A stretch of 60,409 nucleotides of DNA, filler included, from 7 parts of 7 records of this genome joined end to end with filler, not necessarily neighbours in it; one strand, 5' to 3'; counted from the first letter of the whole stretch, positions 101-59,283 are shown. Program-made: numbers and translations. Notes: generated from the sequence alone by a model not told the origin.

Positions 101-3100
101 ACACCTTTCCTTAAAACGGTATATCCACGTAATACTTAGAACAACAGCCCACGAAATTGTAAACAAACGTATCTGATGATAAAATGCACATATATCGTAC
201 GTGTATACTTATTTTTATTGTCTGTATGTTATATATCGATACAACTGTCTATGCATTACACGTGGTATTAAACTTGCCAGTATGTTATGTAATGTACAAT
301 TTGTGTAGTTATATACACCGGTATACTGGACAATGCCTGGAAAGGTGTATACACGTAGTCATATGAACAGATTAAACACTGCATACCAAATTACGTTTAG
401 TTGTTTTTTGTTTTTATATCCCCTATACTGTTATGTCTTTCTCGGAAAGGTGCGTATCACATTGAATAGTTGCGTACGGTATGTAATATACTGCGTGTAT
501 GCAGCATACACATGATACTACGGAAGTCGTGTATGTAACCGGACGGAGTACGCGTTTGTTCACGCCTATACAACCTTGTAGGCTATTACAATATACGTTT
601 TTAGGGCACGCTATCCCCCGGAGTATACCACGGTAAGTTTTGAATTAGTTACTCTATTTTTTTGTTTGTTGATATACTTAATTACTACATATATGTATGT
701 CTGGAAAGATATACCCGGTAGGAGTGATAACCTATAGCTTTATACTTTTTCAGGATTTGGTGTTTGTGTTTACGTAAACTGTATAACATATTATAGGAAA
801 GGTGTATTAACGACATGAACTACTTTCATAACTGCTGGAAACGACGCTCGCGTATGTACCATACAGGGTACACTCATCACCTACGTGGCATGTAACCCGC
901 ACGGTATTACGTACACCTTTCTTATGTATATAGTGTAATTATGGTAGTAATTAAACTATATCAACGAAAAAATATCTGGATATCGACATGTACCCCTTTC
1001 CGGGATAAGCGATGAATATTGTGAGGGTTAAACCAAAACAAAACAATAAAGTTTGCGTAATGGATAAGTTCTACCGAGTAGGAACAGGTATTAATTTTTA
1101 AAAACGCAAAATACCTGTATACAACAGTTTACACTACACTGTCGTGTAATATACCTTTCCGTGGTGTACTTGTACACAGTGGGAAGTTATTACAAAAACA
1201 CCAATATTATTCTGGGGAACATATAGGAACTTTTAGTACACCAAATACGACCTTTCTAAAAAGTATGCAACCAGTTTTAAAATGCACCTTTCCTGACCCG
1301 CGGTGTGAACATTGCCTTACACATGCCCCGTACAGTTTAAAAAAAAGAGTATGAAATTTACAAGTATTATACATATAAGTTCTGGGAGTACGTTACTATA
1401 TTTACCTCGTATTTCATAGACACATCTACACGTGTATAGTGTTTTATTGTGGTTTTGTATGCTTGACACTTCCTGGGTGCATAACATACTTTGGAAAGGT
1501 GTATTTATTCGTAAAGCCCTCAGTTACGTACGCCCTATGATCGTTTGATAGGATGCTTTAATATACACGTTGTATACATCGAACGGGTATACAACACCAC
1601 GTAGTGCATAATTAATTTCCAGGTGTACCTGTCCTAAAAAGGCACCACCCGGGTATGCAGGTAAGATATTACTTGTATGTAATCAAGTTTTATTTTTGTG
1701 CTTTTATTGATGCGGTGTACACGTAGTCACATAAATCATCATAGGAAAGGTGTATAGTGCATTGCTTGTAACTCCTATATGTAGTGACATATACCATCAA
1801 GTACACGGCTAGCACAGTTTATCATGTAGGTGCTAGAATCAACGTACTCGGCATCATGTGTAACACCTGTATTCCCAGCGTAGTTGGTTGATTTGTTTTT
1901 TACGAAACGCAGTGTAATATACGTACTCAGGAAAGGTGTTAAAAATTTCTATTGTTTTAATAATTAACTGTATATACGTGTTAACCAACCTACCCCGTAT
2001 ATTGACATAAAGGTGTAAGCCTTACATGTATACAAATAGTATATATGTGTAGTAAGTATCTCCCAGGGATGTTACACATAACCACAGCTACGACGTGCTT
2101 ATTTTTCTATCATTGTATGTTGTATGTTAGTACATGCATACCTATATTACGTTGGAAAGGTGTACACCTACGCTATGGTGTATGCATGTCATACACACCC
2201 GTACCCGATGATGTTTAGCACACAGTTAAACACCACGCAGGTGGGTATATATATATATATGCTTGTACACCTTTCCAACGAGAACACTAACTATTATACA
2301 CTTACAAAAACACTAAAAAAGTAGCAGTTTGTAATACCCGTACAGGATAACTTTCTACAGGTGTTATACGTACTACATGTGTTTGTTAACACCCCGATAT
2401 ATACATATACATATATGTCACGTAAAAAAATATATAGTATACCTCGGGTGTACGTGCATTGCATGTACGACTACAAAACATGTATTAATGTATACTGTAT
2501 TCCGGTAGGACCCATGTATGCGGGGATGTGTGTTTAACAGATACACCTTTCCCGATATGTAACGAGCAAGCATCCCAGATTAAAAAACATAAATAAGTAA
2601 CATATCTTACTTAGGGTATAACGTCCGGGATGTAGCGTGTAATAATACATATATAAACATAGACCCATGTATATGCATTGCATGTTGTACTTGTCAGCTC
2701 ACCTGGAGGGTGCACACCTTTCCGTAATATACATAGCACACGTATTATGTTCGTACCTCACAAAAAAATAAAAATGTTTAAGTAATGTGAATACGTTAAT
2801 GTCCTATACCGGTTTTATCATAGTGTATTACTTACCGGACGTTACATAAGTGTACGTAGTTAACTTTATCCCGGGGACTACGTTGCCAAAATTCCTACGA
2901 CGGTGATTCATCAACATACGATATGGATTGTATGTGGTACTACATATTTCACACGTGTTTGATCGATACATATGTGAACTTCTACAATTTTGTTTTTGTT
3001 TTTACACAAGTTGTATTATACCCCACTGGAAAGGTGTACTGTATTGTTATATTAATACGTTAATTACACGTACGGTATGCGCGTTACGAAACTACCTGCG

Positions 3101-6100
3101 TGTATTGTAAGTGTCGTACGTGTTCTGTTTATCATCTACATAATGTTGTTTTTGTTATTGTTTTATGAATAAGTTAACCCCACTTCAGGAAAGGTGTATG
3201 TCTACGTATACATATACAGGTTACAGTGTATACTATAACTTGTAACTACGTCTACAGTAGTATGTGTATTAAAAATGTATTACCGTTTACGCGCAATGTT
3301 AGCATTATACGTTCCCCATCGGATAGACACACCTTTCCTAGAAAACCTTACAATCCTGTACCGAGTATAAAAAATCAAAAAATGAAACCTATGTTACGGT
3401 AAGGCATTGTCCCTATACATAAAAACGTGTTATGTGTAAATTAACATGTAATACTTTTTTTATTACACGGGGGCAAGCTACATGCAATACTTTGTGCATA
3501 TAACTATACATATTTACATTTAGTTGGGGTTTGTTTTGTAATAACATACCACGTGCATTTAATTTGCTGGAAAGGTGTTACCGTGTTTCCCGGACTAAAC
3601 AGCTAACGTGTACGGCATCGTTAGAATGACCATGTAGTCTCCACAAGGTGAACACCGGGTTGTCTACCCGTTTGGTATAGTACGTTTCACACACTACTTG
3701 CACCCGGAAGGTTTACGTATTAATTTTTCCTAAAATTTTATGTAAGCCGTCCTGGAGGCTATGTGTAAAAACGTACGTGCTGACCCCTGTGTAAGACTGT
3801 GTGTTTACTATACATGTAATATACAATTTTTTCGCGATAGCGATGTACGGACTTGATAAATTAAATACGATGGAAAGGTGTACACGATGTAACGCATCTG
3901 GAGATTGCGTACGTGTCCCACCCAGAAGACATTGTACGGCTAGATACTTTCAGGCGGTATTATTTTATCCCCGGGGGTTACACGTAATCTATCTGGGATG
4001 TAAGGACACTACGAGCGTAGTTAACATGTTTCGTAAGTTAACACATAACAAACAAACACCGGTACATACAGTATTTCCCGAGGGTTATACTACCCGTATG
4101 AGTTCACATCTATTGGTCACACCTTTCCTTTATGTACAGTAGGGCATGATAATTACCCCACATAAATGAACTATGCAACACAATTACAAGGTGTACATGC
4201 CACCCCGGAGATATGCGTGGACTACGTGTGGGTGTATACTTACCTGCATGACTAGGGAGATTCCCCTTTCCGGTGTGGTAGTGCATACCGTAATTACAAA
4301 AAACACACCCCACGCAAACACGTAATCATCATACGTATAAAACATATACCGTAATATATGTGTACATACACGTGGTTGGCGTATACACTATGATGTACAC
4401 CTTTCCTCTAAAGTACGGGGGATGTAACATGCACCACTCCAAAAAACGTAACGAAACAGTTTTATGCATATAGTATGTTACGTGAGGTGTATGTGTTAAT
4501 CCTATGTACATTGTGTTAACGACCACGTACATGGTTAGTATTACACATCATTCATTACATTTTTTTTGTATAACAAATGCACTACGTACATTAAATAGTG
4601 CTAGGTATGTCTGTATATAGCTGGGTATTACACTTACTAATCATACTTAATGTCATACACCTTTCCGTTATTTAGCATGTTGTACATTACGGGGACAATC
4701 AATCCCAAAATAGTGACCCGTAGACGTACACGCCATACCACGTACTATTCAGGTAAGCACGGTTAAATTAGTAATATTAAGGTTATGTTGTAAGTATAAT
4801 ATCAGTAAGTGCTTACAGGTATCGTCGTAAAGCCTAGATGTACTGTTACGCGTTTTTGCGGAGCACAGCTTACACCCGTAAGTGGTGTACACCTTTCCGT
4901 TATATACTATGTACGCAATATTTACAACATACACAAAAACACGGAAACGCAAAAACGTATACCCGGTAAACAGCGTAGCATAATTTTACCATGTTTGTTG
5001 TATGATTACGTGCATGTGTTTAGACCTTACACACCTATCACCCTATGGGGCGTGGCATGTTGTACATGCATACTTAAATTACCTCGTGTAGGACTTATTA
5101 ACCACAGTATTTCACAGGGCAGTACTCGTAACATCCACTTATTACGTTTGACAAGGTACTCGTAACAGTTAATACACCGTGTAGCATTATTTCTATTTAC
5201 TTATTTTTTTGTTTGGTGTTGTCTGTTAAGCGCGTGTGTTACAATAAACCTAGGAAAGGTGTGTATACCTTTTTGTATAATTACGACACGTATACTGCGT
5301 AACAGAAATCACATCGCGTACACCATTACTATCCCCAGCATACATAGTATTACATTATTCCGCATTTATGTTTTTTGTATATTGCAAGTCTACGATGTAC
5401 TCGAGGAAAGGTGTACACACGAATACTACTGCAGGGGTTCTTATACATGTACGTACACGTGATGCTGTCTAATTTTAAATACAGCTAGTTAGTGTATGTG
5501 TGCTTAGCGTATGCGTTTAACAACCCCGAAACGGTAAGTGAAACACCTTGTAACACCTAAACGCGTACGATACAACGCATACCCCAGACAAGGCATGCTA
5601 CATATTATGTACGTTTACTGGGAACATACAGGACGTGTACACCTTTCCAATATTTGTTACTAGTATCCTGTACACAAAACAAACCTACCAAGCAACAAAT
5701 GGAAAATACTTCCCGTGTAATCCAGCATACACTGTAAGCCACATGTCGTGTACATTAATAAACCATAGTAATATACCTGTGTGTGTTTTTGTTTACGTGG
5801 GTGGTACTTCCTCCAGAAAATTACTTAAACCCATGTACACTACACAGATTAAATTATTAGCGTGTCATTACTAGTACAAATTCCCATATGGCTTACGCCC
5901 CACGTATGTATTTATGAGCTATGGTTTTGAAAAAATAGTATGCGTGTGTAATGTAACTGCATAACATAATATCCGCGTACACTAACCGGTGCGTAGCATA
6001 CCGTGTACATCTACTTTTATTTTTTTTAAAATATAGTTTGCTTATTAATATTTACTTGTTATAGGAAAGGTGTGTTGCAATGTACGTGATACACTTGTAT

Positions 6101-8445
6101 AACTAATACTGGTATCATACCATTCTACAGGTATGCATTACGGTTATTATATTCTCAGGAAATCTTACACGGCCGTAGTAGATCCCATCAGGTTTACACA
6201 CATCGTGATAGGGGCATGTGGCTAGGATTTACAGTTATATCTAACACCTTTCCGGGGATAGGTCTTGAATAACACACTGCATACACAACAACAAATACGA
6301 TAAGCACATTTATACCATAATGTCACTACACCCCTGGGCTATGTTATGTTGTTGATAATATTTTTCTTTTCGCGTAGCGATTACTATTATTACATACCAG
6401 GCATTCCTGGAAAGGTGTAACAGTATTCACCATAATGTGATACGTCGAAGCACACCGTTTACTACGGGCATGGTACACCTTTCCTACGCATTGTATCACG
6501 TAATACATATATATATCCTAACGGACAACATATTAAAGCAATATGTCTTAAGTGATTGTAATCCTGTGGGCGTGTCTGCTATACATATATACATGTATCA
6601 ACACGATATAGTTTTACAAGCTACACCTTTCCAAATATATGCGATATTGTGCGTGTAATAAATCTACACACAATAAAATAAAGCAACACAAAAACCTAGT
6701 AATGTAGTAATATAATATCCTTATGCAAGGTTATGATATCAGGTACACGTAATAATACCCTTGTTACGCGGGAAGCTCGTGAGTTAACCTGGTATGTAAT
6801 GTACACGATGAATGCTAAATTATGGCAAGCAAACCCCGTATACGTATTATGCAACATGTATTACAATCCGTGCATAGTTTACTGTGCGTTATCTTTTTGT
6901 TTGTGTTGTAGACGTAATACGTTATTATGTACACATTCACGGAAAGGTGTATGTTAACCTGTAGACGAGATCGTAACAGCAGTGAAACGTATACACCTTT
7001 CCTGTAACCTTAAATTTGCATAGTTAATACACACCACAAACCACTATAATAATATGTTAGTAACACGGCGCTTACCTAGGGTTTATTGGCATAATAAGTT
7101 TCACTAAAATACCTGCAACGTGTACATCACCTGGTAATGTTATACCACATTCCATATTATGTATGGTATAATACCGTGTGACACACCTTTCCAGAGTAGA
7201 ATGTAAACCGGGACTTTACTAGTACAAAAACAAAAAAAAAATAATTAATATTTTATTTCTGTTACGTTGTACGCTGTTACCTACATACAAGTGGTACACC
7301 TTTCCGGATCAGTTAATATCTAGCTGATATATGTACTAACGTACATCAATAGTAATAAAAATCATACGTGTGGGAGCAATGTATGTATACATTATGTACG
7401 TTACTGTTTAACTGATATATAAAATTCTTATGAGAACTCCATGGTTGTTTCTGTAACAGGGCTTGTCACTAATAATTATAAAAAAAGTCATACGGTGATA
7501 TGTTCCCAATTTTTTCCGGAAATGTACTGCTACAAATTTTGGATGTGTACAAGGGAGGTACACCTCCCGGGGTGTAAACGACGTTGTCCTGGAAAGGTGT
7601 CGCTACCGGGGGCAGTGTACTGAACATGGATTTATCCTAACCCACGTGTGTGCCCTTCCCGTAAAAAGGTTTCGTGTAAGTCGTATATCATACAAACAGC
7701 AAACGGCATTAACAATTACCTGTGCAATATAATGTAGTATGATCTGCTAGATTTGGAACAACAACATCAAGTTACTTGTATGTAACGGAGACACCTTTCC
7801 TATGTATATATGTAATACTGTATACGTATGCTACCGCATAATAAAAAAATAGAACAGTACAAGTTAGGGTATATATTATATTACGGCAGTATTGTGCAAT
7901 AATATGTTTTAAATTTCTGCGGAGCAGTTACATACCCGGGGTACGTTAACGATGGAAAGGTGTACGTATAAAGTAAGTTACTGTTACAGAATATATACAG
8001 TCATATGTACGCGTAACATTTGTTGTACATGTACAGTGTAACTCTTCATGAAGGCGTTAACCGGATACAAGCTTACATGTGTAAGAACTCATGCAACACA
8101 TATATAAATGTGTATAACATAATTCTATTTTTTTTTTGAATGTACATGTAATGTGCATACGTGAACCTACCCGTAACATAGGAAAGGTGTACGACATTTG
8201 TGTATACAACTAACATGATTTTTTGCGTTAACAGATATACACCTTTCCCGGAATAAATGCAGAACGTTACTTATTTCCAAAACAAAACAATGAAAAAAAA
8301 ATTAAAGTAAGTTACTACTATCACACAGGGTATGTTGTATACACTATATGTCACGTATGCGTTAGGTCGTGTACAGTATATAAATTTTACGAAGTATAAA
8401 TGTTTTGTTATGTTATGTATTATAGTATTCCCATAGGAAAGGTGT
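101..8445. repeat. Dispersed array of the decamer ACACCTTTCC/GGAAAGGTGT (candidate kinetoplast gRNA-cassette motif)
   Basis: By-eye count: 18 exact ACACCTTTCC (101, 2267, 2543, 2714, 3329, 4119, 4397, 4657, 4889, 5639, 6244, 6475, 6623, 6993, 7183, 7296, 7791, 8239) and 19 exact GGAAAGGTGT (339, 796, 1493, 1744, 1930, 2154, 3028, 3188, 3569, 3872, 5253, 5405, 6064, 6409, 6941, 7591, 7954, 8181, 8436). One-mismatch copies at 444, 913, 992, 1151, 1284. Intervening sequence appears unique and has no credible ORFs. Confidence refers to the repeat, not the function. Confidence 0.95.
1192..1232 (+). ncRNA. Example putative guide RNA (one of ~40 cassettes)
   Basis: Starts 31 nt after the motif at 1151-1160. 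ACAAAAACACCAATATTATTCT (G-free, anchor-like) is followed by GGGGAACATATAGGAAC (G-containing, guide-like). Boundaries approximate; function inferred. Confidence 0.45.
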
Positions 8446-8520
8446 GATGTTTATGTTATGTGTTATCATGACGAAACGTTCGTATTAAATTAATTTCGGG
8501 AAATACGGGAAACTTCCCGA

Positions 8521-8727: not shown

Positions 8728-9969
8728 CTCACTCGCCGTGTGTCAAGCGTGTTCTCACGACTGATATTGATATGAACAGCCGATGCTACTGAGTCGGATC
8801 TTGAGTGACTGTGCAGACTCATCGTACTTATCCAAGGCGCGGGCCCGTCACATCCGCGCGGCCCAGCTTGCGGCGCTGCACGTCGACCGGGCCCCGTCGG
8901 GCCTGCCAGATCGCCCCCGGCCGGGGTCCGGCTTGGCCGGCGGCCCGTGCAGTTTCCGAGCGGCGCGGGGGCGGCACGGCACCACTCTTCATAAGTCCCG
9001 GACCGTTCAGTTCGGTTGGTGCCTGGGTTGGATCTGATTCATTCGTCGCCTGCCGGAACGGGGCGACGCCCCTAGCCGCCGGCCGCAAGGCCGCCGCCGC
9101 CCCGGCCCCCCCGAAACTGCCCCCCCGCCCGCCCCGGCGCCCCGGCCCACGGCCCGGCGGGTCGTGGAGACTCGCCGGCGGCGGGCCCGGGGCGCTGAGG
9201 GCTCACCATCACTGACTGCGACTGTGGCGGCGCCGGCGGCCCGGCTCGTCCCGAGATGGGGGAGGGCCAGCCTTGGCTTCGGTTGCCGCTGCAGTGTAGA
9301 CAGTGAGCGAGCCGCCCCCGGCCACAGGGTCGGCTCAGTCACGCCGCGCGGCCTGGGAGCCACTGGCCCGTGAGGGGCGATCCGGCCGGCCGGTCGGGGA
9401 GGGGGTGCCAATCAGGAAGCGGAACGGATGCGCGCGCCTGGACCAAACGCCGGTTCGGCTCGGAGGACGTCCTGGATGGGCCGATGACGTCACCCCATGT
9501 CACCGGAAACCCGCCTCCCATGACCCACACGCATGGGATCAGTGCCGGCCACGCCCTCAGTGACCCTCAGCAGTGATTTCACACATAGACTATCTATTCG
9601 GTTCGGTCCCGCGGCGCTGCCGGTTCTTCGCAGCAGGCATCACTGTCATCGCCGGTGCGCCGGAGACTCGCTATCAGTATCCCGGGCCCGCCCTCCTTGC
9701 GCCAGGCCCGTCGGCACTGGGGCCGCGACAGCCCGGCCGTCCCATGGGCTGCCCGGCCAATAGCCAAAGGGCGCCGGCCGAGCCTACTACTCACTCGCCC
9801 TGGCTCCAGCACAAGCGAGTCCCGGCTGCACTGCCCGCGCCGCCGCTGGGGCAGTCAGTTCCACTCAAGGGGAGTCGGGGCCAGTGAGCAGCTGACTTAA
9901 AATATCGATCGCGCATTCACGGCCCGACCGTGAGTGCTACTGGACTAGAGTCCCGGGACTGAGTGCACG

Positions 9970-53282: not shown

Positions 53283-54944
53283 AGGGACCGCCTTTTTTAT
53301 TTGGTTGCGGGGACCCGAGGCCACCATTGTTATAACTTCAGGTGGACTTTGGTTTTTATGCTCGGTCGCAATGTCGAGAATGCCCATCAACTCACCCCGC
53401 AAGCTGATTTGAAAGTCGCCGCGCTTATCTCCCGGCGTGACAATTATTTCTCCAACTACAGACCTGATTGCGTCTGCCGCCTCCGCATACATCAGTGGAT
53501 CGTCAAGAGCTGCGGTCAGGTTTTGCACCTTCTTCCGGTAAATCTCCGCAATATTTGGATGGATGTCGGGAACATCTTGAGGAACCTCATCCATACGCGC
53601 GATGATCTCTTGTTTTTCCTGCTCAAGCTCTTCCATTCGGAACTTCATCGCCGACTGGTACATGCCATCTTCAATAGCCGACATAATGCCCGCAATCCCG
53701 CGCTCGACCTTTTCCAGTTTCTGCCGATCAAGAACAGCTTGTGCACGGCGTTCCCGGTTCATCTGGTTCAGACCTTCGGCATAGGCCTGAACCGCTTCTG
53801 CCACCGCCTCTGCAGAAACCAGTTTTTCGGTAAGCCCGGCCAGAACACGGGCTTCAATCTTGTCCCGAACAATTGTTCGACCATTGTCACAGGTTCCACG
53901 ACGATAACGATTTAAGCATCCATAGCGGTCCCGGGTGATGATGCCATAGTTACCACCACAGCAACCGCACTTGATAAGACCGGAAAACAGGAAAGCAGGT
54001 CTGCGTAGGGTATTGAGCTTTGCAGCATGGTATGCACGAACACCCTTGGTTACATTTGCATACTTCCTGGAGATTTCTTCCTGCCGACGACGTGTGGCCT
54101 GCCATAGATCATCTTCAACGATACGCAACCCAGGCACCTCAGTCCGAACCCACTCGGTTTTCGGGTTAGGTCGTGAAACCCGCTTTCCGGTCGCCGGGTT
54201 CTTGACATAATGGAGCCGGTTCCAGACCATCACGCCGATATAAAGCTCGTTATTCACGATGCCAGTCCCTCGGGAAACATGACCACGAATGGTCGTATCA
54301 CCCCAAACCCGACCATACGGACCAGGAACACCTTCCCGGTTAAGATCGGCGGCGATCGCCTTCGGACTTTTACCCGCAGAAAATTCACGGAAAATGCGGC
54401 GGACAATTTCAGCTTCCGCTTCGTTGATTCTGCGCTCACCGGTAACCGGTTCGCCATCACTGTTTAGACGCTTTACAACATCATATCCGTAGCAAATCCC
54501 GCCGCCGGATTTACCGTTCTCAACACGACCACGAAGACCTCGACGGGTTTTATCGGCAAGGTCCTTGAGAAAGAGCGCATTCATGGTGCCCTTGAGGCCC
54601 ACATGCAGTTCGGAGATTTCACCTTCAGCCAAGGTAACGATACGCACTCCTGCGAACTTCAGATGTTTGAACAAAGTTGCGACATCGGCCTGATCTCGGC
54701 TGACGCGATCCAATGCTTCTGCCAGCACCACATCGAACTTCTGCGCCTGCGCATCTTGCAACAGGCTTTGAATACCCGGCCGCAAGGTAATGCTGGCACC
54801 TGAGATTGCTGCATCATGGTAGGTACCGACAATTCGCCACCTCTCCCGCTTTACCTGCTCTCGGCAAATGCGGAACTGATCTTCGATAGAGTTTTCACTT
54901 TGGTTGTCAGAGGAGTAACGGGCATAAAGCGCTGCACGGATCAT
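53283..54944 (-). CDS. Large serine recombinase (resolvase + recombinase + zinc ribbon + coiled coil); stop codon beyond the contig edge
   Basis: YARYS catalytic motif, SIEDQ, DRVSR, CGCCGG...YGC...C zinc ribbon. Confidence 0.96.
53302..53326 (-). mobile_element. Candidate att junction containing a tRNA-fMet-like 3' end (CCCCGCAACCA)
   Basis: Minus strand reads TGGTGGCCTCGGGT-CCCCGCAACCA, an imperfect TGGT.GC...GC.ACCA dyad inside the last codons of the recombinase. Confidence 0.55.
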
Positions 54945-57243: not shown

Positions 57244-57850
57244 CTGTGGTGATGTTCAGCTTCTCTATCTGGGATTGACTCGGAATGTCTCAGACAGAAA
57301 CCAAGGAAGATCTGCACCTGATAGCTGGGATCGTGAGCATGTTTTCCCGAAGAGCTACGGACTTGGGCGGCAATCCCAGTACGGATATACAGATCTTCAT
57401 CACTTGCGCCCCGCTGATCGTACGTTGAATGGCTATCATTCAAACTACCCCTACTGCCAAGGGGGAGAACCGTTATTCGACAAGCACAATGATGGTTCGT
57501 TTAGCCCAACCTCTGCAAAGTACGACTCAGACAGGAAATGCTTTGAGCCGACTGATATTGCAAAAGGTCAAGTTGCCAGAATGGTCTTTTACATGGCCGT
57601 TAGGTATGAACCTGAAGACACAGAACCAGGGAATATGCCAGACCTTGAGGTAGTATCTTTGGAAGAGGCCTCCCCGGAGGACGGCCTCATTGGGGATCTG
57701 TGTGCGCTTGTCCAGTGGAACCGCCAGTATTCGCCTTCAGATTTCGAGCGTCTTAGGAATGATCGCATCGAATATATACAAGGAAACCGTAACCCATTTG
57801 TCGATCATCCTGAATGGGTTGACGTAATCTGGAAGTCATATTGCAATTAG
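57188..57850 (+). CDS. Endonuclease I / Bsn-like His-Me nuclease, apparently N-terminally truncated
   Basis: VWEAL..TD, WDREHVFPKS, TDLHHLRP, KGQVARMVFYMAVRY, RND.I...QGNRNPFVDHPEW. The upstream part of the ORF (57023-57187) is antisense to the kinase. Confidence 0.8.
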   Translation, partial: DVWEALLFTDSACNANNPTCGDVQLLYLGLTRNVSDRNQGRSAPDSWDREHVFPKSYGLGRQSQYGYTDLHHLRPADRTLNGYHSNYPYCQGGEPLFDKHNDGSFSPTSAKYDSDRKCFEPTDIAKGQVARMVFYMAVRYEPEDTEPGNMPDLEVVSLEEASPEDGLIGDLCALVQWNRQYSPSDFERLRNDRIEYIQGNRNPFVDHPEWVDVIWKSYCN

Positions 57851-59283
57851 GCAATGACCACGAAAAAGCGATCACTCACCCCACAAACTAAGCGTGTTCT
57901 CTTGTTGATCAAGAAAGCTTGTACCCAGTGCACCCCCCGAAACTTTGTCGGCTCGTATCGACTATTCATGTCTTTTGATGGATAGAACCCACCACGCAAA
58001 CAATCGGAGTTAGCCGCTTCCTCGTCAGTATTTACAACCTGCCATTCGACTTTGAAATCTTTCGAAAACGGAAGCCCGGATGCCTGCTGCACGGCACGGA
58101 AATAAATGCCACTATTGGGGTGTATCATATCTCCACTAGTTAGCGGTCTCAAATCCGCACCATCTTCTTCCGCACGCTCATAAGCAACAATGCGCACAGG
58201 AACTTGATTAGCGGCATTTCGGTAGGGCACGGAAACAACTTGAGGCAGGTTTGCGGGCATTTGAGTAAGGATTTGACGGCCACGCGCTTCTACGAGCGAG
58301 ACCAAATCTTTTCCTTGCTGAATGGCATCAGCGAAGACGCGCAATCGGCGAGATGCTGCTTCTTTTACTTCACCTTTAGCGAAAGATTCTCCAAACAGCC
58401 TACGCCATTTCTTTATGCTCTCGTCACGGTCTTCTTCTCCGTAGGCGTCATCAACCCACTCGCGATATTGTGAGATCTTATTGCGAAAATTATCATATTG
58501 TTCCTGTGTCCACTTCCTTGTGAAACTCTCACCAGGAAGTGCTGGGTTCTCAACCGCAGGAAGATCAGGGTTCTCTTGAAGCCAATCATCTAGGCGACCT
58601 ACTATTACTTTGAGGGTCGTTGGCAGGTCAGGGTAAGTATCAAATATGACCCCATCAAAGACGCCTACACGCTCACCGATTAGGGTTGTTAGGAGCACCG
58701 ATTTTGCTGAGAAAGTGCTCTTGGTATCCCTCAAATACTTCAGGAGACGGGCGGTCTTGATAAGATAGTTGCCACCGACGGCTTTGTTCTGCTCTGACCA
58801 CCATTCTTTGAAACCATCTCCATCTGAAGCCTCAAAGCAGTTCTCAGCTCGGTTACAAACCTCGTAGGTGTCTGAGCCTAGCCAATGTTCTCGAACAACA
58901 ATCGGGACAACATCGAGATGGAAATCGCCCGCATAATCAACGGTCACACAACGGGATTTCCGCGACGTCTTGTCTTTATATGTTGCACTTGCGCGAAACA
59001 CTCTTCGCAGTTCGTTCACATACTTGGCAGCGTCCCAATCATCAACCGGTTCTAAGTAGACCACCAGATCAGCATCAAATTCCTTATTCCCTGTTGGTGG
59101 CTTAATAATCGTCTTATGCGCCCAAGAACCCTGAGCGGCGAAACGTATAATTTTTGGCTCGTAATCAGAGTCGCGAAGGAATCTCTTTATCGTATCAACA
59201 CGCTGGCTCAGTAGATCAATCCGTGCCTGATTGAGGTTGACCGTATCGCGCAAGAAATCATCAAATCGCGCCGTCAGCTTCAC
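57847..59283 (-). CDS. CBASS cyclic oligonucleotide synthase (CD-NTase/SMODS) with C-terminal AGS-C domain
   Basis: QGSWAHKTIIKP, EFDADL, FHLDVVP, RLLKYLRD, WRRLFG. AGS-C motif WQVVNT..EA....LRGGFY...E.T.F.G.HWVQAF. GTGA overlap with the patatin stop. Confidence 0.93.
   Translation of the reverse strand: MKLTARFDDFLRDTVNLNQARIDLLSQRVDTIKRFLRDSDYEPKIIRFAAQGSWAHKTIIKPPTGNKEFDADLVVYLEPVDDWDAAKYVNELRRVFRASATYKDKTSRKSRCVTVDYAGDFHLDVVPIVVREHWLGSDTYEVCNRAENCFEASDGDGFKEWWSEQNKAVGGNYLIKTARLLKYLRDTKSTFSAKSVLLTTLIGERVGVFDGVIFDTYPDLPTTLKVIVGRLDDWLQENPDLPAVENPALPGESFTRKWTQEQYDNFRNKISQYREWVDDAYGEEDRDESIKKWRRLFGESFAKGEVKEAASRRLRVFADAIQQGKDLVSLVEARGRQILTQMPANLPQVVSVPYRNAANQVPVRIVAYERAEEDGADLRPLTSGDMIHPNSGIYFRAVQQASGLPFSKDFKVEWQVVNTDEEAANSDCLRGGFYPSKDMNSRYEPTKFRGVHWVQAFLINKRTRLVCGVSDRFFVVIA

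Follow-up and report, generated by a model that had tools for sequence, protein, structure and literature searches.

The first contig of the DNA window analysed here (60,409 nucleotides (nt), seven contigs joined by N spacers) is probably a compact guide-RNA (gRNA) chromosome of an uncultured marine or estuarine kinetoplastid outside the trypanosomatids, with a cassette signal that would be new. The array behind this reading, which draws on sequence comparison, coincides exactly with contig 1 (1-8520) and consists of short cassettes on both strands, each opened by the decamer ACACCTTTCC. The anatomy of these cassettes departs clearly from chance, is conserved in a characteristic pattern and recurs in a family of molecules with terminal repeats, and contig 1 co-occurs with kinetoplastid nuclear DNA.

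The exact decamer is found 37 times in the whole window, and all copies lie at 101-8445 (18 on the plus strand, 19 on the minus strand); dinucleotide shuffles of the whole window contain 0.13 copies on average and 1 at most. With up to one mismatch allowed, contig 1 holds 42 sites, 37 exact and 5 with one mismatch, of which 22 are on the plus and 20 on the minus strand. At the same tolerance, 50 mononucleotide shuffles of contig 1 yielded a mean of 0.5 sites (maximum 3), and the remaining 51,789 window positions contain only 2. Sites follow one another at a mean distance of 203 bp (median 197, range 52-425 bp), in line with the first-pass annotation, which had described one decamer about every 200 bp in nearly equal numbers on each strand. 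Its description of the contig as 8.5 kb of non-coding DNA was likewise borne out: none of the 43 stop-to-stop frames of at least 60 amino acids (aa; code table 4) matched Pfam at E≤0.01, and scans of contig 1 for tRNAs and Rfam families found none. The longest open reading frame (ORF) with a start codon (table 4) spans 140 aa and the longest stop-to-stop frame 178 aa.

Metagenome contigs were scanned for two motifs lying 138-168 nt apart, which returned at least 114 stretches. Among the 114 stretches listed, 16 are dense two-stranded arrays like contig 1, giving at least 16 in all. Fourteen scaffolds come from one sample (L010, L013, L021, L031, L034, L040, L052, L059, L074, L077, L085, L092, L096 and L108) and two, L039 and L065, from two further sources, so that at least 16 arrays derive from three sources other than that of contig 1. 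They comprise ~96 kb with 436 cassettes at ≤1 mismatch; array contigs carry 20-60 cassettes each, about one per 200-350 bp. L065 represents a more distant lineage in which the core CCTTTCC alone is kept, with 35 cores in 9.3 kb, each followed by an A/C-rich block. The other 98 of the 114 listed stretches were rejected as chance or one-stranded tandem-repeat matches. L008 was not counted as an array (G+C 0.26, 0.65 motifs per kb), and the 1794-bp marine contig L067, with 32 decamer copies on one strand at a 38-bp period, is an unrelated tandem repeat. No such array emerged when the same pattern was sought in 185,579 prokaryote genomes, where it matched 94 stretches, or in viral contigs, where it matched 3; the matches there were one-stranded tandem repeats or chance pairs, with at most 8 copies per locus and two loci of the form 2+2.

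Alignment of all sites on the motif, with positions counted from the motif start, revealed a common layout. The two positions 5' of the motif are biased to R and then T/C, giving (R)(T/C)ACACCTTTCC; the motif is followed by ~7 C-poor positions, ~20 positions of ordinary composition and, starting ~27 nt past the motif end, an A/C-rich, G-poor block of 17-27 nt. In the 42 contig 1 cassettes the region from ~+37 to +60 has A at 0.45-0.68, C at 0.17-0.36 and G mostly below 0.08, and 397 cassettes of 14 other array contigs independently reproduce this profile. From ~+39 to +52 both sets show A at 0.47-0.68, C at 0.17-0.32, G at 0.03-0.08 and T at 0.10-0.18, against a background of 0.32 for A/T and 0.18 for C/G. 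A 20-nt window with at least 17 A+C is present within +26..+80 in 22 of 42 cassettes of contig 1 and in 256 of 468 overall, and in 7.5% of 5000 random windows of the same contig; in the remaining cassettes, cassette 20 for example, block composition is more mixed. The signature is strand-specific relative to the motif, and the aligned cassettes display no conservation upstream of the motif or beyond ~+65. The first-pass annotation had each motif followed by unique sequence, which is right as regards uniqueness and incomplete in that it overlooked the A/C-rich, G-poor stretch at ~+37 to +60.

A conserved element at a fixed short distance upstream is thus present, and it is exact in 37 of 42 contig 1 cassettes. 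Measured from the motif start, block matches begin at +38 in the median (10th-90th percentile +30 to +47). Since an identical block can lie 20-40 nt from the motif, the distance appears to be measured only loosely. Initiator-like words (GTA, TAC and others) are only weakly enriched at any fixed downstream place, for example TAC at +34 (0.098 versus 0.048). In the complement of the blocks U makes up ~60% and G 25%, a U/G-rich, C-poor composition like that of edited kinetoplastid mRNA.

Conservation between cassettes is concentrated in the same interval. Counts of 12-mers shared in register by cassettes on different contigs peak at +40/+41 (120-121 of 468, versus 36 in locally shuffled decoys) and stay in single figures outside +30..+55, except for the motif itself and small bumps (≤11) near +104..+112. 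Ungapped block matches exceed those against reversed-sequence decoys at every threshold (78 versus 16 at score ≥16, 38 versus 6 at ≥17, 18 versus 1 at ≥18), with a matched part of 17-27 nt that extends in the median from +38 to +57.5. These counts exclude gapped alignments, which at lenient gap costs continued into unrelated flanks. Aligned pairs have identical 19-25-nt blocks with exact A-run lengths amid unrelated spacers and tails, and such pairs also connect different sources (cassette 38 with L039:1806, and L052:6650 with L039:1028). In contig 1, a block partner elsewhere exists for 6 of 42 cassettes at score ≥17 and for 11 of 42 at ≥16. Blocks that are nearly identical turn up twice or three times within a sample, and contig L034 alone has such a pair (L034:2490 and L034:4485). 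Being many, different, specific and partly redundant, the blocks behave as an information carrier. As specific blocks with exact run lengths recur amid fully diverged spacers and flanks, selection seems to act on the block sequence itself, and this pattern of conservation marks out motif and block as the functional parts of the cassette.

Outside the termini, blastn detected no similarity of contig 1 to the 16 arrays. The array loci are alike only in their terminal few hundred bases, and no syntenic diverged pairs on which substitutions could be tested were found among them. The termini are tandem arrays of ~10-nt GGAA/TTCC-type units, which form inverted terminal repeats in L065 (12-234 versus 9087-9309; 223 nt, 90%), L059 (3-284 versus 6573-6282; 292 nt, 88%) and L077 (1-73 versus 5988-5916; 73 nt, 95%). 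Because both ends of these three contigs are terminal repeats, they represent free molecules. A terminus of the same type begins in the final ~37 nt of contig 1, and the 30-mer at 8491-8520 is common to other contigs of sequencing run X1 and has a very high word depth. The simplest picture suggested by these comparisons is a family of linear ~6-12-kb molecules with common inverted terminal repeats and unique central arrays. Subterminal tandem repeats of ~79 bp in L092:4135-4731 and L074:1-275 (72-82% identity) are distinct from the 10-nt terminal units. The core of the motif resembles the TTTCC/GGAAA units of the terminal repeats, and its reverse complement ends in a hexamer matching the 3' half of the universal minicircle 12-mer (CSB3). 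A single DNA-binding protein might recognise motif and repeat units alike, which we offer as an idea only.

Copies of contig 1 were sought among assembled contigs of sequencing runs. Run X1 contains an 8519-nt contig that is 100% identical, and run X7 two identical pieces; no run registered as RNA was recorded with the stretch. Run X4, an estuary metagenome from another study, contains a collinear copy with 488 substitutions (338 transitions) and 32 indels, corresponding to ~6% divergence, from which we conclude that the molecule is a stable entity in nature. In run X6, contigs of a cDNA library match 5270-5668 and 7771-8299, each with an adaptor-like loose end on one side and a stop at an A-run on the other; the loose ends are presumably the template-switch cDNA adaptor. 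These contigs offer a hint that long transcripts of both strands, each spanning several cassettes, were copied into oligo-dT-primed cDNA, and fit carried-over DNA equally well. Their adaptor-flanked ends, 5668 (minus strand) and 7771 (plus strand), lie exactly 20 nt from a motif edge (5639-5648 and 7791-7800, respectively), once in sense and once in antisense relative to the motif; with two cases this may be coincidence.

The neighbouring contigs bear on the host. Contigs 2-4 are eukaryotic and encode an alpha-kinase, a 3024-aa adenylate cyclase and a WD40 protein. The last of these (459 aa, contig 3, 26889-28268) is a homologue of NSA1, with named matches in trypanosomatids at 44-71% identity over the aligned parts and in Diplonema papillatum at only 26%. 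The view of the first-pass annotation that contig 3 is kinetoplastid agrees with these matches, which are trypanosomatid only besides Diplonema, and contig 3 can be assigned by sequence similarity to a kinetoplastid outside the sequenced trypanosomatids. The best named full-length relative, P0002 (61% identity), is filed in EukProt as a transcriptome of Colponema, a predatory alveolate, a label that may reflect contamination by prey; all remaining named matches are kinetoplastid or diplonemid. Contig 1 itself, putatively kinetoplast DNA, is AT-rich, non-coding and multi-copy with shared termini, and a kinetoplastid nuclear contig is present in the same window.

To place the array among known systems, we compared it with minicircles and with other gRNA-bearing molecules. 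Minicircles of the Trypanosoma brucei type are catenated ~1-kb circles with the elements CSB1-3, 3-5 cassettes, 18-bp inverted repeats and G:U-rich guides. The array molecules resemble them in having a predicted gRNA gene ~30 bp from a short conserved element and several cassettes per molecule, and differ in their linear appearance, their length of 6-12 kb, their 20-60 cassettes with one unpaired decamer each, their G-poor blocks and the lack of CSB3. A minicircle of trypanosomatid type is ruled out by the 6-12-kb size, the inverted terminal repeats and the missing CSB3 12-mer.

The multi-gRNA molecules of Trypanoplasma borreli are the closest described system. These 'ScaI-flanked' molecules form 17 contigs of ~70 kb, capped at either end by tandem repeats that face in opposite directions, with a CSB3-like sequence in the terminal repeat. 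Their gRNA loci, identified by aligning them to edited mRNAs, occupy both strands without apparent order, on average 23 per molecule or ~1 per 3 kb, each with the 9-nt element RYAGGCTTT 20-40 bp upstream; G:U pairs are rare in these gRNAs (0.11 per base), whose median length is 28 nt (PMC9679448). Both systems are non-coding and probably linear, with inverted terminal tandem repeats, a unique centre and two-stranded loci behind a short motif. In contrast to T. borreli, the motif here is ACACCTTTCC, the molecules measure 6-12 kb instead of ~70 kb and are roughly ten times denser, and the cassettes are recognised by their sequence architecture; contig 1 contains 0 copies of RYAGGCTTT. In a literature text search the decamer, in either form, was not found in a kinetoplast DNA context among the matches listed, where the sole entry with both the decamer string and 'kinetoplast' was a Leishmania topoisomerase study. 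Together with the difference from the T. borreli element, this accords with the earlier remark that the decamer is unfamiliar from described kinetoplast DNA.

The free-living marine kinetoplastids Papus ankaliazontas and Apiculatamorpha spiralis keep gRNAs on separate high-copy molecules with a conserved backbone, either 1.3-2.2-kb circles with 2-3 gRNAs or ~600-bp linear molecules with one gRNA region of ~85 bp, and those of A. spiralis are probably linear (PMC7859406); unlike these prokinetoplastid molecules, the present ones array dozens of cassettes each. Perkinsela kinetoplast DNA consists of many fragments with terminal repeats, its gRNA candidates contain an A- or A/C-rich tract and its ORFs are 40-62% U; its contigs are short, the candidates are defined by at least 25 nt of complementarity, and no common flanking motif is reported (PMC4669381). 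Terminal repeats and A/C-rich tracts are therefore points of likeness, whereas the common motif sets our array apart.

A further comparison concerns SAG D1, a marine single-cell deep-branching relative of kinetoplastids that has fragmented mitochondrial genes with no known joining mechanism. Its multi-module contigs have 36% G+C, reach 7.2 kb and are mostly unique, resembling one another only near their ends, and its modules are recognisable protein-gene fragments of up to ~135 aa that were found by homology (PMC6792441). Our contigs are similar in their marine origin, G+C content, size and likeness near the ends only, and differ from SAG D1 in that contig 1 has no recognisable gene fragments (0 of 43 frames of at least 60 aa, shorter modules lying outside this test). 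The multi-module contigs of SAG D1 lend some colour to a reading on the opposite strand, in which the G/T-rich strand of each block would be a tiny gene fragment, as in diplonemids or SAG D1, and the motif a downstream processing signal; read by eye, this strand of the aligned blocks does translate to hydrophobic peptides. We judge this reading very improbable, given that the SAG D1 modules were found by homology and no frame here matches Pfam, that 17-27 nt is far below the length of described modules, and that near-identical repeated blocks such as L034:2490 and L034:4485 are expected of redundant guides and not of unique gene pieces.

We propose the following model for a gRNA chromosome. 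Contig 1 would be one of a set of ~6-12-kb, probably linear mitochondrial (kinetoplast) DNAs whose sole cargo is a two-stranded array of gRNA cassettes. Each cassette would comprise a sequence-specific signal, (R)(T/C)ACACCTTTCC, of which the more distant lineage keeps the CCTTTCC core; a non-conserved spacer of ~27 nt (range ~20-40) whose first 7 nt are C-poor; and a 17-27-nt informational block composed of a mixed-sequence anchor and then an A-rich guiding stretch with interspersed C. A mitochondrial factor bound to the motif might set the transcription start or a 5' processing site at a measured distance, and the 5' part of the resulting short RNA could pair with pre-mRNA while its A residues template U insertions. 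We infer that the molecules are mitochondrial, that transcription proceeds from the motif, where the RNAs begin and end, and that these RNAs act as guides.

Several observations weigh against this model. In this mixed assembly, with eukaryotic and bacterial contigs side by side, contig 1 is linked to the other contigs, and hence to kinetoplastid DNA, by co-occurrence only. Contigs 5-7, the three bacterial ones, encode an ABC transporter, a Kdo transferase, a DegT aminotransferase, Mfd, a serine recombinase and a SMODS cyclase. Moreover, the CSB3 12-mer is absent at ≤1 mismatch from the 17 array sequences. Both points would suit a non-mitochondrial or non-kinetoplastid molecule, such as a nuclear small-RNA cluster, a transposon with terminal inverted repeats, a linear plasmid or a viral genome. 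Such an origin is nevertheless highly unlikely in our estimation: the array has no coding capacity and no Rfam family, nothing like it occurs in the prokaryote genomes or viral contigs searched, its G+C content of 0.36-0.39 is lower than that of the contig 3 interior (0.44-0.60 in 500-bp bins), and contigs with terminal repeats at both ends, of which there are three, are free molecules.

A second group of observations concerns constraint within the X4 copy. Among the first 40 of its 488 differences, 5 lie within the first four blocks (80 nt in all), which is no depletion, and among 12 of its 32 indels, 3 alter A-run length inside blocks. Since block substitutions are undepleted in this portion and A-runs carry indels, many cassettes may be under weak or no constraint. 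Of the five block differences, four are A/G changes on the presumed guide strand. The lack of depletion and the A-run indels, as well as the resemblance between motif core and terminal-repeat units, would suit structural or selfish DNA that makes no functional RNA. On that reading a protein involved in replicating, packaging or segregating the linear molecules would bind the repeated decamer, and the A-rich stretch would be a side effect of the context of this site. Diverse yet specific blocks that recur with exact run lengths where spacers and flanks have fully diverged, and a signature that is strand-specific relative to the motif, speak against this explanation, to which we assign a low probability.

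The third group concerns guiding as such. Between homologous blocks no excess of pairing-preserving changes was detected: the 38 best pairs (score ≥17) contain 10 transitions and 18 transversions as internal mismatches, and all 173 pairs at score ≥15 contain 57 transitions and 91 transversions. Cassette 20 and L074:7116 match over 34 nt without gaps, and all six of their differences are transitions. Homologous blocks could serve diverged targets in different lineages, and the transition result lowers the guide claim without excluding it. Offsets of 11-mers that cassettes have in common surpass those of decoys chiefly at ≤9 nt, and the individual cases resemble a single unit placed behind spacers of differing length; staggered overlaps of a guide cascade are not separable from variable spacer length and low complexity, and the guide set is probably far from complete. 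Anchor-zone k-mers (k=10) occur in 3' zones of other cassettes in 210 pairs, versus 158-184 in control zones, without clear enrichment. Furthermore, G is scarce in the blocks, unlike in the G:U-rich guides of trypanosomatids, and the blocks are shorter than most known gRNAs. When six conserved mitochondrial peptide motifs were back-translated with G:U tolerance, the best matches were no better than those of shuffled motifs. At the present coverage of the repertoire, such indirect tests have little power.

Discrete 17-27-nt blocks without detectable cascade overlaps, the missing excess of pairing-preserving transitions and the existence of a kinetoplastid relative with fragmented mitochondrial genes and no known joining mechanism (PMC6792441) would all be compatible with small motif-led mitochondrial RNAs that are not U-indel guides and instead act as splints for gene fragments, as guides for other modifications or as regulators. 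We regard this as unlikely in view of a block complement that is U/G-rich and C-poor like U-inserted mRNA (compare the U content in Perkinsela, PMC4669381), a layout that matches the gRNA loci of T. borreli (PMC9679448) and a nuclear contig that groups with editing-competent kinetoplastids. There is similarly only a slim chance that the motif-led blocks specify a new kind of short mitochondrial antisense RNA beyond canonical cascade U-indel guiding, one possibility being independent ~20-25-nt single-hit guides or splints that join or tail transcript pieces. If they did, the system would be intermediate between RNA processing of the diplonemid and trypanosomatid types, and with the decamer such RNAs would have their first defined promoter or processing signal. 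As to the many-cassette gRNA molecule put forward in the first-pass annotation, its architecture, use of both strands, non-coding nature, membership of a molecule family and conservation of motif and block all lend it support, whereas the tests of cascades, of transitions and of constraint in the X4 copy do not.

Features of contig 1. For each cassette the best 20-nt A+C window is given, with the score as A+C count out of 20.
Feature	Position	Strand	Motif	Window	Score	Remark
Whole contig 1	1-8520	.				non-coding array molecule, G+C 0.33-0.41
(TA)n run, left contig end	1-28	.				probably assembly break; 1-39 skipped as repeat when matching sequencing-run contigs
Start of terminal repeat	8484-8520	.				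common to other array contigs; GGGAA/TTCCC-type palindromic units
Cassette 1	101-166	+	exact, 101-110	137-156	16/20	
Cassette 2	283-348	-	exact, 339-348	293-312	14/20	
Cassette 3	388-453	-	one mismatch, 444-453	396-415	19/20	block homologue in L092
Cassette 4	740-805	-	exact, 796-805	756-775	18/20	
Cassette 5	913-978	+	one mismatch, 913-922	953-972	16/20	
Cassette 6	992-1057	+	one mismatch, 992-1001	1030-1049	19/20	
Cassette 7	1151-1216	+	one mismatch, 1151-1160	1184-1203	15/20	
Cassette 8	1284-1349	+	one mismatch, 1284-1293	1315-1334	14/20	
Cassette 9	1437-1502	-	exact, 1493-1502	1439-1458	19/20	
Cassette 10	1688-1753	-	exact, 1744-1753	1693-1712	17/20	
Cassette 11	1874-1939	-	exact, 1930-1939	1883-1902	18/20	
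Cassette 12	2098-2163	-	exact, 2154-2163	2113-2132	16/20	block homologue in L052
Cassette 13	2267-2332	+	exact, 2267-2276	2298-2317	17/20	
Cassette 14	2543-2608	+	exact, 2543-2552	2574-2593	16/20	
Cassette 15	2714-2779	+	exact, 2714-2723	2755-2774	18/20	
Cassette 16	2972-3037	-	exact, 3028-3037	2988-3007	16/20	block homologue in L085
Cassette 17	3132-3197	-	exact, 3188-3197	3145-3164	19/20	
Cassette 18	3329-3394	+	exact, 3329-3338	3369-3388	17/20	
Cassette 19	3513-3578	-	exact, 3569-3578	3520-3539	19/20	
Cassette 20	3816-3881	-	exact, 3872-3881	3827-3846	14/20	mixed-composition block; homologue L074:7116
Cassette 21	4119-4184	+	exact, 4119-4128	4151-4170	15/20	
Cassette 22	4397-4462	+	exact, 4397-4406	4426-4445	17/20	
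Cassette 23	4657-4722	+	exact, 4657-4666	4693-4712	15/20	
Cassette 24	4889-4954	+	exact, 4889-4898	4923-4942	18/20	
Cassette 25	5197-5262	-	exact, 5253-5262	5208-5227	19/20	block homologue in L034
Cassette 26	5349-5414	-	exact, 5405-5414	5365-5384	17/20	
Cassette 27	5639-5704	+	exact, 5639-5648	5672-5691	19/20	
Cassette 28	6008-6073	-	exact, 6064-6073	6021-6040	14/20	
Cassette 29	6244-6309	+	exact, 6244-6253	6271-6290	17/20	
Cassette 30	6351-6418	-	exact, 6409-6418	6351-6370	15/20	
Cassette 31	6475-6540	+	exact, 6475-6484	6511-6530	14/20	
Cassette 32	6623-6694	+	exact, 6623-6632	6675-6694	18/20	
Cassette 33	6885-6950	-	exact, 6941-6950	6892-6911	18/20	
Cassette 34	6993-7058	+	exact, 6993-7002	7025-7044	18/20	
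Cassette 35	7183-7248	+	exact, 7183-7192	7224-7243	19/20	
Cassette 36	7296-7361	+	exact, 7296-7305	7342-7361	14/20	
Cassette 37	7535-7600	-	exact, 7591-7600	7540-7559	14/20	
Cassette 38	7791-7856	+	exact, 7791-7800	7837-7856	16/20	25-nt block homologue L039:1806, flanks unrelated
Cassette 39	7898-7963	-	exact, 7954-7963	7905-7924	14/20	
Cassette 40	8124-8190	-	exact, 8181-8190	8124-8143	16/20	block homologue L052:3227
Cassette 41	8239-8304	+	exact, 8239-8248	8277-8296	18/20	
Cassette 42	8380-8445	-	exact, 8436-8445	8400-8419	16/20	

Elsewhere in the window, the 3024-aa ORF of contig 3 (16434-25508) combines a TmcB-like TPR stretch with an adenylate/guanylate cyclase domain at its C terminus and is far longer than trypanosomatid cyclases of the receptor type. 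The bacterial contig 7 (53283-60409) encodes a large serine recombinase (53283-54944, minus strand) that neighbours a SMODS/AGS-C cyclic-oligonucleotide synthase (57847-59283, minus strand) and unannotated ORFs, and resembles a CBASS-type defence island carried by a mobile element. The contig junctions (8521-8620 and five others) consist of two 44-N runs flanking the 12-nt linker TTAATTAATTAA and are artefacts of building or sequencing; the poly-G run at the start of contig 2 is likewise an artefact of window building or sequencing.

To our knowledge, the storage and transcription of gRNAs outside the trypanosomatids are known from very few species, namely Bodo, Trypanoplasma, Perkinsela and two prokinetoplastids. 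If contig 1 is indeed a gRNA chromosome, the small linear molecules of a widespread marine kinetoplastid each hold 20-60 guide genes, spaced at one per 200-350 bp and led by an invariant decamer, an arrangement that would be the most compact gRNA organisation described. In that case the decamer would stand out as an unusually clear-cut candidate promoter or processing signal of gRNAs and, because it is so specific, would make it feasible to extract the whole guide repertoire of the lineage from metagenomes, so that editing patterns of uncultured kinetoplastids would become predictable from DNA alone. Linear, repeat-capped gRNA molecules in the style of T. borreli would extend to a free-living lineage, which would bear on the origin of minicircles.

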